In this document: piece by piece, positions 423 through 55,929 of the stretch
How the letters are laid out: every line of letters begins with the position of its first letter
How positions within the stretch are numbered: position 1 is the stretch's first letter
Origin: a candidate division TM6 bacterium GW2011_GWF2_28_16
GTDB lineage: Bacteria > Patescibacteriota > Microgenomatia > UBA1400 > PJMF01
Reading direction: 5' to 3'
Length of the DNA stretch: 64,000 bases
Assembly (NCBI GenBank): GCA_001029715.1
Contig: CP011212.1
Location: 398,936 to 462,935 of the forward strand
Made by a program: the position numbers and the translations under genes
Notes under the pieces: generated by a model
What the model saw: only the letters and a program-made list of their open reading frames with translations
The model's database searches: none
Told to the model about the DNA's origin: nothing

Positions 423-830
423 CTATTTTTTTATTAGTTTTTTAACTTTTTCAAAGAAAGTTAAGCAAACTAAAGCTGAAGTAATTAGAAGAATAGTCAA
501 AAAACTTAGTAGATCAAAACTGATATTAACTATTTTAAAATAGAGCATTAGGTTGATAAAAAAGGCAATAATTAATCCAAGGTTTTTATTAAGCAATAGA
601 AAAGTAAAAAGAAAAAAGTTGGCAATGAAAGTTAGTAAAAAGAAAGGCAAATAACTATTTTTAAATATAAAATTTTGAATTTGACTTGGATAAATTTTAC
701 TAATCAGTAAGTAGAGTAAAAAATAAGCAATTAGGGCGATAAATAGACTCAAAATATAGTGAAGATGTTTCTTAAAAAAAAAATCCTTTTTAGGTTTAAG
801 TCTGGATCGCGCTTGGTTCTTTTCCATCAT
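423..830 (-). CDS. Hypothetical polytopic membrane protein (135 aa)
   Basis: Track ORF with several hydrophobic helices and no recognisable family motif. It contains a T10 homopolymer (774-783 on the plus strand). Confidence 0.45.
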   Translation of the reverse strand: MMEKNQARSRLKPKKDFFFKKHLHYILSLFIALIAYFLLYLLISKIYPSQIQNFIFKNSYLPFFLLTFIANFFLFTFLLLNKNLGLIIAFFINLMLYFKIVNISFDLLSFLTILLITSALVCLTFFEKVKKLIKK

Positions 831-10083: not shown

Positions 10084-11604
10084 ATGGCTTGGTATCGTTC
10101 TTATCGTCCTAAAAAAATTCAAGATCTAAACATTAGCTCTGTTAGAGAATCTCTAGAGAGAATGATGGCGGCTGGGAAAATTCCTCAATCTTTGTTATTT
10201 GCCGGCCCAAAGGGCACGGGTAAAACTTCTGCCTCACGTATTTTAGGTGCCATGCTCAATGATCCAGCCAATGCTGATTTAGTTGATTATCTTTTTTTCA
10301 AAAAAGTTGCTCCTAAAAAGTTGGCTTTTGTAGAGCCAAATGAAGAAAGTGAGTTTGCTAAAAGAGTTTATGATGGACACTCTTTTGTTGTTCAGGAATT
10401 AGATGCAGCTTCTAATCGTCGTATTGATGATATTCGTTTGCTTAGAGAAAGAATCAATTTGCCTCCTAGTGATGGCAAAATGATGGTTTATATCTTAGAC
10501 GAAGTTCACATGTTAACCAATGAAGCTTTTAATGCTTTGTTGAAAATTCTTGAGGAACCACCAGCTCACGTGGTTTTTATTCTAGCCACTACAGAATTAC
10601 ATAAAATCCCAGCAACAATTGTTTCTCGTTGCAGTCTAATTAATTTCAGAAAAGCTAGCGGTAAAGAGCTAAAAGAGGCTTTAGAGCGAGTTCTGAAAGC
10701 AGAAAAAATAAAATTTGCTGATGAGGATCTAGAGAAAATCTCTCTCAGAGCTGATGGTAGTTTTAGAGATGGAGTTAAAATTTTAGAGATGGCTTGTAAA
10801 GATGGTAAATTAGATTTAGAAAGTATCAAAGATCTTCTTGCTAGTGATAATGAGTCTCACATTAAAAATTTACTTGAAGCAGTTGTGCAAAAAGATGAGC
10901 AGGAGTTGTTAAAAATTTTTGGGGAATTACGCGATAATAATTGCAACCAACGAGATTTTTACAAAGATCTTTTTGAGTTTTTACATAAAGATTTATTAAT
11001 GAATTTAGGAGTTATTGATGGAGTAGCTCATTATTCTATTAAAATTGATCAATTTTTTCTTAAGGAAGTTTTATCTCTCGATCTAAATCAAGATACACCC
11101 ATTCCTTTCTTAGTTTTAGAATTAAAACTCTTAGACATTATTGAGCGTTCTAAGAAAAATACTCCAAATTTGCCACCTAAAAATCCACCAACTAATTCAG
11201 GCTCAGAAAAAAAAACTGAAAAAATTGAGTTGAAAACCAAAGAGAACAAAAAAGAACCAGCAGACTCCAAAAAAAAAATTCAAAAAACTGATCTAGTTGG
11301 GCAAGATCTTTGGCAAAAATTAATAGAAACCTTTTCTGCAGATAATTTTTCTTTACTCACCCTTCTTAAATCTTGTAAGCTAGACACTATAAGCGAAGAG
11401 CTAGCTAGAATCTTTGTTTATTATCCTTTTCATAAAGAACAACTGGAGCAAATTAAAAATAAAGAATTGTTAAATAAAGCTGCTAGAGAAGTCCTAGGAC
11501 TCGATATGCAGTTTGACTTTGTTTTGCAAAATGAAACAGTGGTAGCCAGCAATCAGATTCAGGATTCAGAATTAATGCTTGCAGCTAAGGATTCTTTGTT
11601 ATAA
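10084..11604 (+). CDS. dnaX: DNA polymerase III subunit gamma/tau
   Basis: YRPKK..DL, P-loop GPKGTGKTSASRIL, clamp-loader boxes LDEVHMLT and SRC (IVSRCSL). A Lys-rich linker carries A9 and A10 tracts. Confidence 0.92.
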   Translation: MAWYRSYRPKKIQDLNISSVRESLERMMAAGKIPQSLLFAGPKGTGKTSASRILGAMLNDPANADLVDYLFFKKVAPKKLAFVEPNEESEFAKRVYDGHSFVVQELDAASNRRIDDIRLLRERINLPPSDGKMMVYILDEVHMLTNEAFNALLKILEEPPAHVVFILATTELHKIPATIVSRCSLINFRKASGKELKEALERVLKAEKIKFADEDLEKISLRADGSFRDGVKILEMACKDGKLDLESIKDLLASDNESHIKNLLEAVVQKDEQELLKIFGELRDNNCNQRDFYKDLFEFLHKDLLMNLGVIDGVAHYSIKIDQFFLKEVLSLDLNQDTPIPFLVLELKLLDIIERSKKNTPNLPPKNPPTNSGSEKKTEKIELKTKENKKEPADSKKKIQKTDLVGQDLWQKLIETFSADNFSLLTLLKSCKLDTISEELARIFVYYPFHKEQLEQIKNKELLNKAAREVLGLDMQFDFVLQNETVVASNQIQDSELMLAAKDSLL

Positions 11605-11740
11605 TCAGGGTTAGTTTTGAGTGCTAACTTTATAAATTAAAAAAGAAAGGAATAATTTAATTTTTGATGCATTACATTACCCGAGTAAACGTCTTTACTC
11701 GAGAGATGCTGAGGAAAAAATTATATTATTACGTAATAGT

Positions 11741-12022
11741 ATGGCAGGAAATTTCATGAACCAATTGGGAGATTTAAATAAATTGCGTAAGCAAGCTAAG
11801 CAAATGCAGCAAGAATTGGCAGCTGAAGAGATCACTGTTGAGCGTGGTGACATCGTAGTTAAAATTACTGGGGGTCAGGAAGTCAAAGACATCTCTGTCC
11901 AAGGTATTCATAGCGATGAATTAGTCAAAACTTTAAATGAAGCAATTAAAAAATCTCAAGAGGTAGCAGCCAAGAAACTTCAAAGTATGACGGGTGGTTT
12001 AGGCTCTCTGATGGGCAAATAA
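11741..12022 (+). CDS. ybaB: Nucleoid-associated protein YbaB/EbfC
   Basis: About 90 aa with LNKLRKQAKQMQQELAAEEITVERGDIVVKITGGQEVKDISV, the YbaB signature. It sits directly after dnaX as in many bacteria. An alternative start is at 11756. Confidence 0.85.
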   Translation: MAGNFMNQLGDLNKLRKQAKQMQQELAAEEITVERGDIVVKITGGQEVKDISVQGIHSDELVKTLNEAIKKSQEVAAKKLQSMTGGLGSLMGK

Positions 12023-20032: not shown

Positions 20033-20104
20033 TGACCCCACGCAGAATCGAACTGCGGTTACAAGGATGAGAACCTTGTGTCCTAACCACTAGACGATGG
20101 GGCC
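20033..20104 (-). tRNA. tRNA-Glu (anticodon CUC)
   Basis: The reverse complement GGCCCCATCGTCTAGTGGTTAGGACACAAGGTTCTCATCCTTGTAACCGCAGTTCGATTCTGCGTGGGGTCA folds as a cloverleaf. It has a 7-bp acceptor stem, anticodon loop TTCTCAT and T-loop TTCGATT. CCA is not encoded. Confidence 0.9.
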
Positions 20105-20183
20105 GATCCAGAGATTATACCAAATTTGCCTTGATTTTGTAAACGCTACACTTCTTGTAATTTGGTTCAGTGATAATAAGTTA

Positions 20184-20927
20184 ATGATAATTATTTTATT
20201 TTTCTTAACTTTATTTTTTTCTGTTAGACAAATTGAGGCACAGAGTTTTTCTTATCAATTTATTTTGGCAAATAATTCAATTGATTTAGATTTTTTAAAA
20301 AAGTTAGAATTAAATTTAGAAGAGCAAAAGCCAAAAAATTTTCTCTCTTTTGAATATAAGTTGGAAAAACAAAATGATTTGCCCTCAGATCTTCCTTTAT
20401 TTATTGTTGCTTTTGATAAAGAAGTGCTTTTTTCAGTCGATTCCAGCTTGGCAGATAGTTTATTTCACCAGGTAGAAATAAATTTAACCAATCGAAATGA
20501 TCGAATACCAGTTTTTTATCAAAGCAATTATTTAGATGGTTTTAAGCTCACATTGGAAAATTTAATTTTTATTGAAGAGCCAATTCTTAATAAGGATAAA
20601 ACTTCAATAATTAAAGACCTAAGCGTCATTAGAGAATTAGATCAATCTCTTAGCATTATTTTTTCTCTAGAAGAAACAGAAAAAAGACAACATTCTTTTC
20701 AGCTGATTTGTCTTGATGAAGGAGGCGAAGTTACAAACTCAAATAAATTATTTAAGAATGACGACTTTCTTTGGTCTGACTTTTTTTTTACAAATTCTTT
20801 TTCTAATAAAAAAAATGAATTTATTTTTCACTTGGATAAGCTCGAATGCTCTGGGCTTGTTTATGTACTTACTGACTTTTCTATTCAGTCAGATAAAACT
20901 TCAATTATCAGAGTGGAGGACTTATGA
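20184..20927 (+). CDS. Hypothetical secreted protein
   Basis: The track ORF starts at 20097 inside the tRNA. The internal ATG 20184 gives a signal-peptide-like N-terminus, MIIILFFLTLFFSVRQIEAQS. Confidence 0.5.
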   Translation: MIIILFFLTLFFSVRQIEAQSFSYQFILANNSIDLDFLKKLELNLEEQKPKNFLSFEYKLEKQNDLPSDLPLFIVAFDKEVLFSVDSSLADSLFHQVEINLTNRNDRIPVFYQSNYLDGFKLTLENLIFIEEPILNKDKTSIIKDLSVIRELDQSLSIIFSLEETEKRQHSFQLICLDEGGEVTNSNKLFKNDDFLWSDFFFTNSFSNKKNEFIFHLDKLECSGLVYVLTDFSIQSDKTSIIRVEDL

Positions 20928-48818: not shown

Positions 48819-50321
48819 TTATTTAAAATTCTCTTCTTTTATCTCCCAAATCTCTAAACAAGGTGCTCCGTTTGGTCGGCAGAAGCTCTTGAGGAGGTCT
48901 GCTTCGGGGAGTTTCATTTCTAGGCGATGAGAATTAACTATTAATAATTTGTTGTCAAAATCTCTGGCTTTTTGCCAAAACTCAGCGGGAATTTCTCTAA
49001 CTGGTTGACCGATGCCTTCGACGTAAATATTTTCAACGTTTTGATTATGGAGATTGAGCAAGATACCATCTGGGAGAGTGCCAAAATAGCCCTCGGTGGC
49101 GACGGCTACCCTTTGTGTTTCGGCTAGCTCTTGGATATAGGAGACCGATTCTTTGATGCCATGTCCTGAAGCCCAGCTTTCGAGAAACTGTTCTCGATCG
49201 ACTCTGCTTAGTTGTAGCTGATCGACTTTGAAGTAAGATGTGGAGATAAATAAAATCGATGGTAAGATAATTAAAAGCAAAAATAGATACTTGAAGATTT
49301 TCTTGTTGAAATTTTGTAGAGAAATAGTTGCTGAAGCAATAAAAAATAAACTACTGGGTAGGATGTAGCGAGGGTAAATAATTCTTCCGAGCAAAGCCAA
49401 AGGGAAAATAAAAATTAAACCAGATAAAAACAGAACCACTTGTTTACGTCTGGTTTTAGCTGAAAGCGGCAAGGCTAAGAGCAAAATCACTGGTCCCAGA
49501 TAATAAATGAGTTGTTCGTAGAAGAACTGACTGTTTTGCCAAAAAATCGTAAAAATTTCAGTGGACAAAATCACAGAGCGAGGTTGCAAAAAATTCCCTC
49601 CAACAGCAAATAATTGACTGAAAAGCGGTATTATTCTAAAGCTATAAAAAGCCAATCCAGCCAAAAGCAAGCCTACACTAATTTTAATGCTTTTATTAAT
49701 GATTAATTTTAAATTCAATTTTTCTTCAAAAAAAATCGCTAAGTAAAAGACTGGCATGAAGAGAAGAGCTGGGGTTTTACTCATAATGCTTAGTAAGAAA
49801 AAGAAAGCAAAAGGCAAAATTGGCCAGATCTTTTTATTTCTAATTATTAAGAGAGCAAAATAATAAGAAATAATCAGATTGGCAAATAAGAGCCCATCAG
49901 TTAAAGCCATGCGATTATAGAAAAAAGTAAAAGGACTAATAATTGCTAAGAACATGGCCAGATGAGCAGCCTTCTTTTCCTTGATTTTTCTCATGATTAA
50001 GAAAATCATTGAAACACTTACTCCTCCGACTAAAACCGCTAATAACCTAGCCGCGAAAAGCTGGTCAGTAATTAATTTCAAAAAAGGCAACATCAGCCAC
50101 ATCAGTAGAGGGGTTTTACCATCATTCATTGGATAAAAAAGATAGCGATTAAAATCATCAATAATCAGTTGTGACCAGCGAATATAGATTGATTCATCAG
50201 CAAAAACTGGTAAAGAAGTTAAATGAAAAAGATGCAAGGCAAAGTATAAAACAAGCAAAGCTAAAAAGAAAAAAAGAGTTTTATTTTTCACTTCTTCTAT
50301 TAAATAGGAAAAAGGTAGCAC
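48819..50321 (-). CDS. GT-C membrane glycosyltransferase (ArnT/PMT, GT39/GT83-like)
   Basis: About 12 TM helices, a first-loop acidic motif (LPVFADESIYIRW) and a soluble C-terminal domain. Confidence 0.7.
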   Translation of the reverse strand: MLPFSYLIEEVKNKTLFFFLALLVLYFALHLFHLTSLPVFADESIYIRWSQLIIDDFNRYLFYPMNDGKTPLLMWLMLPFLKLITDQLFAARLLAVLVGGVSVSMIFLIMRKIKEKKAAHLAMFLAIISPFTFFYNRMALTDGLLFANLIISYYFALLIIRNKKIWPILPFAFFFLLSIMSKTPALLFMPVFYLAIFFEEKLNLKLIINKSIKISVGLLLAGLAFYSFRIIPLFSQLFAVGGNFLQPRSVILSTEIFTIFWQNSQFFYEQLIYYLGPVILLLALPLSAKTRRKQVVLFLSGLIFIFPLALLGRIIYPRYILPSSLFFIASATISLQNFNKKIFKYLFLLLIILPSILFISTSYFKVDQLQLSRVDREQFLESWASGHGIKESVSYIQELAETQRVAVATEGYFGTLPDGILLNLHNQNVENIYVEGIGQPVREIPAEFWQKARDFDNKLLIVNSHRLEMKLPEADLLKSFCRPNGAPCLEIWEIKEENFK

Positions 50322-51471
50322 TAAGCAAGAGGTAGAAGCTAGGGATTAGCCAAGTAATGGCTTTTTGCAGGCTTTCCAAACTACTTGAATCCAAGTGAAA
50401 ACTCATCCAAGGCAGATAGTACATCCAAGGTAAATAGCGTAGCAATGAAGAAAAGGAAAAAACGATTAATAAATTTCTGAGAAATTTATTTTTGATTAAA
50501 GGTAAAAAGATTAGAGACCAAAGTAAATACCAAGGTAAAAACTGTTTGGATCTTTCAGTTAGCAATGGAGCGAACATTGCTAAAGCCATTAAATCGTAGG
50601 TAGGGAATTTGCCTAGTCTTCCTAGCCTATTTTTGAGTGCTAAATAAATTATTAGAGGTAACAAAACAATTGTGGCAAATTTAATAGAAATTGATACAGT
50701 AAGCAAAACAGCAATTAAGATAATCTTGAAAATTTTTTTCTTTTGTAAATTAGTCGCTAGATAAACAGCTAATAAAGCTGGAGCCAGCATCCATAGATCA
50801 TTATGAGCACTGCTGAGAATTTCAATTAAAAGTAATGGATTTAAAAAGAATAAAGCTAATTTAAAATAGTTAGCTTTCTTGAAAAACTTTTCACTAATCA
50901 GCAGAGCTAGAATTAAGGAAAGAAAAGCAAATAGTTTAAAAACGATAAAGGTGGAAAGAAATTTCCCCAGTCCAGCTAGATATGGCAACAGTGACAAAGT
51001 AGTCCAACCATAACCATATGGAGCCGGGGTGTGAATGTTGTTCATGAAACGCAACATCGGATCATTAGGAAAATTAATGGCAGTTTGAACATGTGGATTA
51101 GCCCCATACTCGATGATCATTTTTGCATTAAAAATATAATTAAAAAGATCGTGAGAGAGGGCGTTGTAAGAAAAAATTAGGGGCAAACTGACAATGATTA
51201 GAAACTTCCAAAAATTTTGGCGAACATCAAGTTTTAAGCCATGCCAATTTTTAAGGATAAGCAAATAATTAATGAAGATCAAAGTGATTAGAACGCCATA
51301 GAAAATAGTTCTAAAATTTTGTAATGGTAAAACATGTTGCCAAAGATAAGTTTGAAGAGAAACAAAAAAATTAAGATTCAGCAAAGTCAGATTAGGATCG
51401 GTCAAAACAAAAGAAAAAATCGCAAAAACAACAAATAAAAAAAAATAACTTTTAAGTAAAAAACTTTTCAT
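50281..51471 (-). CDS. Polytopic membrane protein, probable GT-C glycosyltransferase (DUF2029/GT87-like)
   Basis: A loop SHDLFNYIFNAKMIIEYGANPH...PAPYGYGW resembles the S.D..Y...NPY...YGP pattern of mannosyltransferase-like GT-C families. This assignment is from memory only. Confidence 0.5.
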   Translation of the reverse strand: MKSFLLKSYFFLFVVFAIFSFVLTDPNLTLLNLNFFVSLQTYLWQHVLPLQNFRTIFYGVLITLIFINYLLILKNWHGLKLDVRQNFWKFLIIVSLPLIFSYNALSHDLFNYIFNAKMIIEYGANPHVQTAINFPNDPMLRFMNNIHTPAPYGYGWTTLSLLPYLAGLGKFLSTFIVFKLFAFLSLILALLISEKFFKKANYFKLALFFLNPLLLIEILSSAHNDLWMLAPALLAVYLATNLQKKKIFKIILIAVLLTVSISIKFATIVLLPLIIYLALKNRLGRLGKFPTYDLMALAMFAPLLTERSKQFLPWYLLWSLIFLPLIKNKFLRNLLIVFSFSSLLRYLPWMYYLPWMSFHLDSSSLESLQKAITWLIPSFYLLLSATFFLFNRRSEK

Positions 51472-53777: not shown

Positions 53778-54950
53778 TTATTTCTTCTTTTTCCAAACAA
53801 AAGTGCTGTAAGCGAAAAAATTCCAGAACATACCAACTAGAATACCCACCACTGCAGATATAACGCCCGTATCAATTATGTAGTTAACAATTGGTAGAGT
53901 AAATACAGGTTTAAGACCAATGGTAGCAGAAGTAAAGTAAGCAATGGCACTCTGAATTAAGATTGAGCCACCAGAAGATAAATTAAAAGTGAGAAAACTC
54001 ATTGGAATCTGACTGGCTTTTAACTTACGATCCTTAAAAGTCCAAAGATTGCTCCAAATAAAATTCGAGACGATAGCTGTTTCAATGGATAAAAAATTAG
54101 CAATCACGAAGCTTTTTTCTGATGAAAATGGTATTCTCCATAAAGATAAGGCGATTAGTTGAACCAAGGCTCCAAACCCTCCAACAATGGCAAATTTCAC
54201 CACTCTCATCTCTAAAATTTCTTTTATTCTAACCTTCATAAGATATAACAAAGTATTTTTGATATACTCTGGCCCTATTTTACTATTACCTACTACTCGA
54301 TCTTTAAATTCAAAAGGCACTTCTGCAATTTTGAAATTTTTACGCAAGGTTTTATGTAAAAAACCTATCTGAAAAGTATAACCTGAAAAACGATCATCAT
54401 GCAATTCATCTTCTATAGATAGGTATACTTCCTTTTTGATTGCTCGAAAGCCTGTCGTCCAATCTCTGATTGAGAAGTCCAGCATCAAAAAATTAATAAA
54501 AGCGTTTCCGACTATGCTTAAAAATTTACGATGTATGCCCCAGTTTTTAGGAATAGAGCCACCCTTAATGTATCTAGATCCTAAAACAAGGTCGTAGCCC
54601 TGATCAATCTTTTTTAAAAAAGCAGGAATTTTTTTAGGATCATGAGAGAGATCGGCATCAAACTCAAAAACTAAGTCTGCTTTTAATTTAGCAAAAGCAT
54701 GATTCATGCCAATCAAATAAGCCCCACCTAAGCCAGATTTTTTTTTATTGATTAATAATTCAAGAAATCTAAACTTTTTTTGTAAACTTTTCACGAGGAT
54801 TGCTGTGCCATCTGGAGAACTATCGTCAACTACTAAGATTTGCATTTGCCAATTTTTAATGCTTTTAAAAATTTCAGCAAGAGACTGGATGGTCTCTGCA
54901 ATATTACCTTTTTCATTATAAGTGGGAATAATGACAACGGCTTTTTTCAT
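53778..54950 (-). CDS. Polyprenol-monophosphomannose synthase-like GT2 fused to a C-terminal GtrA-like 4-TM domain
   Basis: AVVIIPTYNEKGNI, VVDDSSPDGT and DADLSHDP (DPM1/Ppm1 signatures), followed by a hydrophobic GtrA-like tail (FAIVGGFGALVQL...). ATG 54950 is preferred over the TTG at 54974. Confidence 0.8.
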   Translation of the reverse strand: MKKAVVIIPTYNEKGNIAETIQSLAEIFKSIKNWQMQILVVDDSSPDGTAILVKSLQKKFRFLELLINKKKSGLGGAYLIGMNHAFAKLKADLVFEFDADLSHDPKKIPAFLKKIDQGYDLVLGSRYIKGGSIPKNWGIHRKFLSIVGNAFINFLMLDFSIRDWTTGFRAIKKEVYLSIEDELHDDRFSGYTFQIGFLHKTLRKNFKIAEVPFEFKDRVVGNSKIGPEYIKNTLLYLMKVRIKEILEMRVVKFAIVGGFGALVQLIALSLWRIPFSSEKSFVIANFLSIETAIVSNFIWSNLWTFKDRKLKASQIPMSFLTFNLSSGGSILIQSAIAYFTSATIGLKPVFTLPIVNYIIDTGVISAVVGILVGMFWNFFAYSTFVWKKKK

Positions 54951-54951
54951 C

Positions 54952-55929
54952 TTAGTTAGGATTTTTACTTTCAAATTCTATATCTTGCGTCACCATCAAA
55001 GTAACCAATTCTTCAAAACTAACTGAAGGCTCCCACTTAAGAATCTTTTTAGCTTTTTCTGGATTGCCAATTAATAAATCAACTTCGGCTGGACGATCAT
55101 ATTTTTTATTATGTTTAACGTATTTTTGATAATCTCCTAGACCTGCAACTCTGAAAGCAATTTCCAAGAATTCTCTGACACTATGAGTTTCACCAGTAGC
55201 AATCACAAAATCATCGGCTTTATCTTGCTGTAACATTAACCACATGGCTTTGACGTAATCTTTGGCATAGCCCCAATCTCTCTTTGCATCTAAATTGCCC
55301 AACTCAATAAAGTCTTGTTTACCTAGTTTAATGCGAGCCACAGCATTACTAATCTTACGTGTTACGAATTCTAGTCCGCGACGAGGCGATTCATGATTGA
55401 AAAGAATACCAGAAACAGCAAACATATCGTATGATTCTCGATAGTTAACCGTAATCCAATGTCCATAGACTTTGGCTACGCCATAAGGTGAGCGGGGGTA
55501 AAAGGGAGTATTCTCATTTTGAGGAACTTCTCTAACTTTGCCAAACATTTCACTTGAGCTAGCTTGATAGAATTTAGCTTTTGGACAAGCCAATCTCATA
55601 GCATCTAAAACTCTGGTTACGCCAATAGCGGTAAATTCTCCAGTTAAAACCGGCTGCTCCCAAGAAGCTTTAACAAAAGACTGAGCAGCTAAATTATAAA
55701 TTTCATCTGGCTGGATATCTTGCAAAGCAAAAGTTAAAGAATGTTGATCAATTAAATCTCCAGAAATAAGTTCAAGGTTTGGATTGTGAATAATAGATTT
55801 AATGCGATCGAAATTTTGAGTACTAGTGCGACGGGTTAGGCCATAAACTTTATAACCTTTTTCAAGCAAAAGCTCGGCTAAATAAGAACCGTCTTGTCCA
55901 GTAATGCCCGTGATAAAAGCTTTTTTCAT
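54952..55929 (-). CDS. gmd: GDP-mannose 4,6-dehydratase
   Basis: [38 protein letters not shown], and NHESPRRG. The start at 55929 forms an ATGA overlap with the upstream gene. Confidence 0.9.

Follow-up and report, generated by a model that had tools for sequence, protein, structure and literature searches.

A conserved run of ten adenines in dnaX of Patescibacteria as a probable site of tau/gamma recoding by transcriptional slippage

Does the dnaX gene of an uncultured Patescibacteria bacterium encode one form of the clamp-loader subunit DnaX, the full-length tau, or also a truncated gamma? Three mechanisms are known for producing both forms from one gene, namely ribosomal frameshifting, transcriptional slippage, and proteolysis, and slippage in Thermus dnaX was reportedly described by Larsen et al. 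in 2000 and Yurieva et al. in 1997. The question is raised by a stretch of 64,000 nucleotides (nt) from candidate division TM6 bacterium GW2011_GWF2_28_16 (contig CP011212.1, positions 398,936 to 462,935 of the forward strand), hereafter the window, which has a guanine-plus-cytosine content (GC) of 34%. An earlier, sequence-only reading had pointed to two runs of adenines, A9 and A10, in the dnaX linker as a candidate tau/gamma switch. We find this idea strongly supported at the A10 run, whereas the A9 run is not conserved. The A10 run is, from its comparative pattern, very likely a tau/gamma switch by recoding of some kind, this confidence being the sum of what we assign to transcriptional and to translational slippage, and it is probably a recoding site that selection maintains and that would act, as in Thermus thermophilus, by transcriptional slippage. 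The elements of the gene, in window coordinates, are the following.

10084-11604, forward strand: dnaX coding sequence, from the list of open reading frames (ORFs); the zero frame encodes a full-length, tau-like DnaX of 506 amino acids (aa)
10084-11157, forward strand: clamp-loader domains I-III, aa 1-358, ending in ...IIERSKK; conserved in the protein alignment
11158-11307, forward strand: Lys/Pro/Ser-rich hypervariable linker, aa 359-408; conserved in the protein alignment only at an SKKKIQK island
11207-11215, forward strand: A9 tract, non-conserved, GAA AAA AAA ACT (E375-K377), with off-frame stops TGA 11217-11219 and TGA 11231-11233
11269-11278, forward strand: A10 tract, the proposed slippage site, at codon phase 0, AAA AAA AAA ATT (K396-K398 and the first base of I399)
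11289-11291, forward strand: TGA stop in the -1 frame after A10, read as AAT TCA AAA AAC TGA, if the mRNA gains a net +1 nt or the ribosome shifts by -1
11294-11296, forward strand: TAG stop in the +1 frame after A10, read as TTC AAA AAA CTG ATC TAG, upon a net -1 or +2 nt in the mRNA
11308-11601, forward strand: C-terminal tau-specific domain, aa 409-506, LWQKLI...KDSLL; conserved in the alignment and absent from the predicted truncated products

The encoded protein matches the NCBIfam equivalog TIGR02397 (dnaX_nterm; 279 bits versus a cutoff of 250) and PRK05563 (E = 2e-86), and contains the Pfam domains DNA_pol3_delta2, AAA, and DNAX_ATPase_lid. A profile built from DnaX together with homologous proteins finds the crystal structures of E. 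coli gamma/tau (E = 8e-54), the NCBIfam and PDB matches spanning aa 2-318. The C-terminal domain of the window protein shows a weak match to PF20964 (DnaX_C; E = 0.055, below cutoff), a family for which precomputed matches are present in several DnaX homologs, and profile positions 422-498 match the DnaA domain-I chain 4tps_B (E = 8.6e-4). The A10 run, at aa 396-399, is located between the end of domains I-III (~aa 358) and the C-terminal domain (~aa 409), so that a shift there would remove exactly the tau-specific part, while domains I-III would be common to tau and the predicted gamma-like products. With off-frame stops 4 codons (-1) and 5 codons (+1) away, the predicted products comprise 402 aa with the C-terminus ...KKKNSKN in the -1 frame, and 403 aa with the C-terminus ...KKKFKKLI in the +1 frame, in agreement with the earlier estimate of roughly 400 aa. 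The A9 run sits 54 nt upstream of A10; from it, the -1 frame reads AAC TGA (stop at 11217-11219; predicted product, 378 aa) and the +1 frame reads CTG AAA AAA TTG AGT TGA (stop at 11231-11233; predicted product, 382 aa). On rechecking, every statement of the sequence-only reading about the coordinates, frames, and stops of both runs was correct.

Evidence for selection on the A10 run comes from its relatives. In a protein alignment of 49 homologs (50-93% identity), SKKKIQK is the one conserved stretch of a linker that cannot otherwise be aligned, and the motif is kept in 37 of them. The DNA of relatives was taken from a genome collection and from exact-protein look-ups, giving 15 distinct orthologs with KKK at the site (the window, L161, L001, L162-L167, L169, L172, L003, L004, L005, and L173), with pairwise aa identities of 52% at minimum, 67% at the median, and up to 93%, and a GC of 34-45%. 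As the automatic alignment of the linker put the KKK columns out of register, the motif was anchored on the run, and the well-aligned domains supplied the control columns. All 15 orthologs carry exactly A10 at codon phase 0. The lysine codons of the motif are AAA in 45 of 45 cases, as compared with 31 AAG among the 165 codons (19%) at 11 columns of these orthologs where Lys is invariant (P = 8.6e-5); when the invariant Lys, Glu, and Gln columns are taken together, 29% of the codons are G-ending, and the uniformity at A10 has a probability of 2.6e-7. A single codon is kept in only 3 of 76 invariant two-fold-degenerate columns, indicating that synonymous sites are well randomised among the 15 orthologs, and three adjacent columns of this kind are expected with P ~6e-5. 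The tenth adenine is constant though the codon supplying it varies (ATT, ATG, ATC, and AGC, for Ile, Met, and Ser), and the codons flanking the run are free to vary. In a nucleotide alignment of nine close relatives, where the mean column identity of the linker is 60%, A10 together with TT.A.AAAA is the only invariant block in ~190 nt. Pure A10 is found also in the orthologs of 43-45% GC. As judged from these codons, the A10 run is under nucleotide-level purifying selection across the clade, beyond the conservation of the encoded amino acids. The sequence-only reading had proposed checking whether orthologs write these lysines as AAA or as a mixture of AAA and AAG; they use AAA only.

The same reading had cautioned that off-frame stops and A-runs in Lys-rich linkers are common by chance in an AT-rich genome, a caution that holds for the stops and not for the runs. 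Stops do lie near the run in both frames in all 15 orthologs, within 0-7 codons (1-6 codons past the run in the -1 frame and 0-7 codons in the +1 frame). In the window dnaX as a whole, however, a stop is reached at a median distance of 4 codons (-1) and 7 codons (+1), and at 19% of the positions both off-frame stops are as near as at the A10 site. Tested against all positions of each gene, the proximity of the stops is unremarkable in the AT-rich members and individually significant only in three orthologs of 43-45% GC (p 0.02-0.05), and the off-frame stops were dropped as evidence. Long A-runs, by contrast, are rare. The 64-kb window holds only six A/T runs of at least 9, and in synonymous-codon shuffles of its 61 genes, 9.2 sense A-runs of at least 9 are expected as against 3 observed, a number as low being reached in 0 of 300 shuffles; two of these three runs are located in dnaX. 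T-runs of at least 9 are likewise depleted (3 observed versus 7.8 expected). Eleven of the 13 KKK tripeptides in window genes contain AAG, though AAG makes up only 20% of the Lys codons. Where runs of a certain length are depleted, that length can be taken to be prone to slippage in the organism concerned (Baranov et al. 2005, PMC1088944), and by this logic the depletion of A-runs of at least 9 indicates that runs of that length are slippage-prone here.

Beyond the window, A-runs of at least 9 after aa 330 occur in 9 of 142 full-length dnaX loci, 8 of the 9 being relatives of the window, and none of the 142 loci has such a run within the first 330 aa. Since the survey includes many other Patescibacteria of similar GC, the near absence of long runs outside the clade indicates that a Lys-rich linker in an AT-rich genome gives no such runs by default. 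An explanation by AT-richness alone was thus ruled out by the synonymous shuffles, the KKK codon usage in the window, and the 142-locus survey. Among more distant homologs, the linkers of L006, L008, and L009 (41-47% identity) each contain a phase-0 A9, and two A9 runs occur in L007. In L171 (59% identity), KKK is absent at the canonical site, and three A9 runs are found within 25 codons of the linker (2566-2640, aa 356-380), each with off-frame stops nearby. This pattern looks like relocation or multiplication of a slippery tract, and because L171 lacks the canonical KKK and has A9 runs, selection may be for a long run somewhere in the linker and not for one particular peptide. The RSKK(N) segment at the end of domain III (aa 356-358; window 11149-11157) is written AAG AAA AAT in the window, as A8 in several orthologs (L161, L167, and L169), and as A9 in L171, its mixed AAA/AAG usage providing an internal contrast to the A10 site. 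One further relative with a short ORF, L010 (52% identity), was considered as a two-ORF dnaX and set aside as uninformative, its linker being masked by N.

The A9 run of the window shares none of this conservation. In L161, which is 93% identical, the site reads GAA AAG AAG CTT, no other ortholog has a run there, and the encoded EKK is not conserved in the 49-homolog protein alignment. The A9 run was therefore ruled out as part of the conserved device; it is evidently a recent, private run of this genome, apparently incidental to that device, and it may contribute some extra truncated product (378/382 aa).

How would the A10 run give two proteins? On the T10 template, the short rA:dT hybrid within RNA polymerase would realign, giving rise to a mixture of dnaX mRNAs with A10, A9, A11, A12, and so on. 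Those of templated length, or differing from it by +/-3n, would be translated into the full-length, 506-aa tau, and those with a net +1 or -1 nt would enter a frame ending after 4-5 codons. The resulting products, ~402-403 aa long, would retain the three clamp-loader domains with the greater part of the linker, and lose the C-terminal tau domain. We infer that the slippage takes place in transcription, and that these truncated forms build up and function as gamma in some ratio to tau.

The closest known system is dnaX of T. thermophilus, in which a single tau ORF has an A9 run with stops near in both other frames, and transcriptional slippage yields tau and gamma at 1:1 (PMC5009743; PMC1088944). 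The two genes have in common a single tau ORF with a sense A-run of at least 9 after domain III and before the tau-specific C-terminus, and stops near in both non-zero frames, so that any slip other than 3n would give a truncated gamma and no ribosomal stimulators would be required. Every sequence-level feature of the Thermus type is found here, including a run kept by selection at synonymous sites, and a run of at least 9 adenines in the tau ORF is present also in 14 orthologs. The present gene differs in having A10 in a 34% GC, uncultured Patescibacteria bacterium, as compared with A9 in a GC-rich thermophile, in its shorter DnaX with only ~100 aa after the site, and in the second, non-conserved A9 of the window. 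Moreover, slippage and two products, demonstrated in T. thermophilus, are predicted for the present gene.

The same stops would be reached and the same gamma-like products made if ribosomes shifted by -1 on A_AAA_AAA or slid on the poly(A) Lys tract, an explanation that we regard as unlikely. The A10 run does contain an in-phase X_XXY_YYZ heptamer, A_AAA_AAA, and AAG is absent from the motif in all 15 orthologs. E. coli dnaX uses the related A_AAA_AAG for a -1 frameshift, aided by an upstream Shine-Dalgarno (SD)-like element and a downstream stem-loop (PMC3711429; PMC5009743), and E. coli ribosomes are known to slide on iterated AAA codons (PMC4363877). Because sliding is governed by the length of the run and can do without flanking stimulators, it would fit the same conservation data. 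The present site resembles that of E. coli in the gene, the relative position, the predicted outcome (a gamma without the C-terminal tau domains), and the in-phase A-rich heptamer; it differs in the heptamer itself, in having neither an SD-like element nor a conserved stem-loop nor an Rfam match, and in the position of the -1 stop, 4 codons downstream as compared with termination one codon after the shift in E. coli (PMC5009743), with stops conserved in both frames. Classical -1 frameshifting does not need both of these stops. In addition, E. coli ribosomes shift far less readily on A_AAA_AAA than on A_AAA_AAG (PMC5009743), and a heptamer needs only seven adenines, yet all ten are conserved, including the tenth from differing codons.

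The search for ribosomal stimulators covered both sides of the run. No SD-like motif (GGAG, GAGG, or AGGA) occurs within 25 nt upstream of the run in any of the 15 orthologs. In the window, the 62 nt downstream fold at -6.1 kcal/mol with a z-score of +0.75, no better than shuffles, a significant downstream hairpin is absent in 8 of the 9 other orthologs folded, and a permissive Rfam scan gave no frameshift element at dnaX. Folding of the upstream and downstream windows, the SD-motif scan, and the Rfam scan thus revealed no conserved stimulator of the E. coli type. With none of its three defining features found (A_AAA_AAG, an SD-like element ~10 nt upstream, and a stem-loop), programmed -1 frameshifting as in E. 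coli was rejected, and the absence of these stimulators favours slippage of the Thermus type. The sequence-only reading had left the choice between the two types open; the features of the Thermus type are present and the stimulators of the E. coli type absent. By mononucleotide-shuffle z-scores, L003 (58% identity, GC 44%) is the sole outlier among the 15 orthologs. It has a strong 13-bp hairpin, unmatched in the other orthologs, at 2639-2676 directly after its A10 (2629-2638), with a folding energy of -21 kcal/mol and a z-score of -3.4 (-5.6 with a 45-nt window), and its +1-frame stop TGA abuts the run. This hairpin may be a lineage-specific stimulator.

Two other known routes to a pair of DnaX forms differ more plainly. 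Two-ORF poly-A (A7-A10) dnaX genes, e.g., of Chlorobi, have a zero frame that stops to give gamma, and slippage is needed for tau (Antonov et al. 2013, PMC3711429). They share with the present gene an A10 in dnaX at the tau/gamma boundary and a proposed transcriptional realignment; here, however, the zero frame is tau, and slippage would give gamma. This type was ruled out because the zero frame runs uninterrupted through the conserved C-terminal domain. In Caulobacter crescentus, DnaX is processed post-translationally by ClpXP proteolysis (bioRxiv 10.1101/2022.11.10.516041), which likewise provides two forms from one gene by removal of the C-terminal part, but ClpXP proteolysis would impose no constraint on synonymous codons such as that seen here.

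A slightly more doubtful explanation than ribosomal slippage is that no recoding takes place, SKKKIQK being a protein motif of tau (e.g., a basic patch for DNA or a partner) and A10 a by-product of a preference for AAA. The retention of the motif in 37 of 49 homologs with its flanking S and I/Q/K fits this explanation, as do the share of AAA among the Lys codons of the window (80%) and the frequency of off-frame stops by chance. It accounts poorly for the complete lack of AAG among the 45 codons against 19% at control columns, for the invariance of three adjacent codons where only 3 of 76 control columns are invariant, and for pure A10 at a GC of 43-45%. Elsewhere in the window, KKK is broken by AAG (11 of 13), and A-runs of at least 9 are ~3-fold depleted. 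Furthermore, L171 lacks the motif and has long A-runs elsewhere in the linker, and distant AT-rich Patescibacteria with Lys-rich linkers have no such runs. Finally, it is highly improbable that A10 is a contingency locus, a hypermutable DNA tract at which replication slippage toggles full-length and truncated dnaX alleles in the population, for although homopolymers this long are prone to replication slippage (PMC1088944), dnaX is essential and single-copy, the 15 independent assemblies agree on an in-frame run of exactly ten adenines, none having an A9 or A11 allele, and the close database homologs are all full-length at ~500 aa.

Several points weigh against slippage of the Thermus type at A10. 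In the AT-rich members, chance alone would account for the nearby off-frame stops, 16-31% of positions doing as well as the A10 site. The residues flanking KKK (D/x-S before and I-Q-K after) are also conserved in closer relatives, and a protein-level role of SKKKIQK would account for part of the conservation. The 15 sequences are related, and control columns of the same phylogeny mitigate this non-independence and do not remove it. Within the clade, L002, L082, and L083 have no run of at least 8, from which it follows that the device is dispensable or replaced there. The production of a gamma-like protein is itself something that we infer, and on a homopolymer, slippage in transcription and slippage in translation look alike at the level of sequence.

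A literature search found no paper linking the Candidate Phyla Radiation (CPR) or Patescibacteria to dnaX recoding, which thus appears to be unreported in Patescibacteria. If slippage at A10 is real, the solution of the Thermus type would extend to a very distant phylum, where it would be held under selection at synonymous sites, and its presence in tiny genomes with a stripped-down replication machinery would support the view that the short form of DnaX is needed and not incidental. For the recoding field, this would be a clean but unsurprising extension, with its value in the phylogenetic reach and the strength of the synonymous-site signal. When these genomes are annotated, dnaX deserves a flag as a gene with potentially two products, and the A10 tract could serve as a natural marker of RNA polymerase slippage in uncultured organisms through paired metagenome and metatranscriptome data.

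It may further be speculated, with rather low confidence, that in ultra-small CPR bacteria the tau:gamma ratio is set by the linker A-runs, which would serve as an evolvable dial. What selection would then favour is at least one slippery run anywhere in the linker, and not a fixed site, and the number, length, and position of the runs would tune the amount of gamma. The variety of arrangements fits this idea: most members have A10 alone and this genome has both A9 and A10, L171 carries three A9 runs, L003 pairs its A10 with a hairpin, and L002 has none. As polymerase kinetics govern slippage, nucleotide supply or growth state might also affect the ratio. If such a dial exists, gamma would be functionally important even in minimal replisomes.

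The surroundings of dnaX, comprising ybeY upstream, and ybaB and a Ham1-family gene downstream, are syntenic in all orthologous loci fetched, the next gene being as follows.

11741-12022, forward strand: ybaB/ebfC, PF02575 (E = 4.8e-10), the usual downstream neighbour of dnaX

The 136-nt spacer between dnaX and ybaB contains a perfect 8-bp hairpin, CGAGTAAA-cgtc-TTTACTCG, at 11682-11701, with no T-run after it and no Rfam match; among the orthologs, the length of this spacer ranges from about 30 to 240 nt. The names that DnaX homologs bear put the organism within Patescibacteria, close to Pacebacteria/Microgenomates. Several relatives with a Patescibacteria-type dnaX and the same synteny (L001, L002, L005, L006, L008, and others) are labelled 'uncultured Pseudomonadales' or 'Gammaproteobacteria bacterium', and the taxonomic labels of these third-party metagenome-assembled genomes look unreliable.

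Apart from dnaX, the only other all-AAA KKK in the window is a sense A9 at 54738-54746, in a gene on the reverse strand (53778-54974) for a GT2 glycosyltransferase with a GtrA transmembrane domain, where the context is AAT AAA AAA AAA TCT (aa 77-79). Genes of this GT2/GtrA class are often tied to phase-variable homopolymer tracts. Sense T10/T9 runs encoding FFF are located at 774-783, 20781-20789, and 51437-51445, in ORFs without Pfam matches (423-830, reverse strand; 20097-20927, forward strand; and 50281-51471, reverse strand), and the run in the last of these, at codon 9, may be upstream of the true start. T-runs of at least 7 are also depleted genome-wide.

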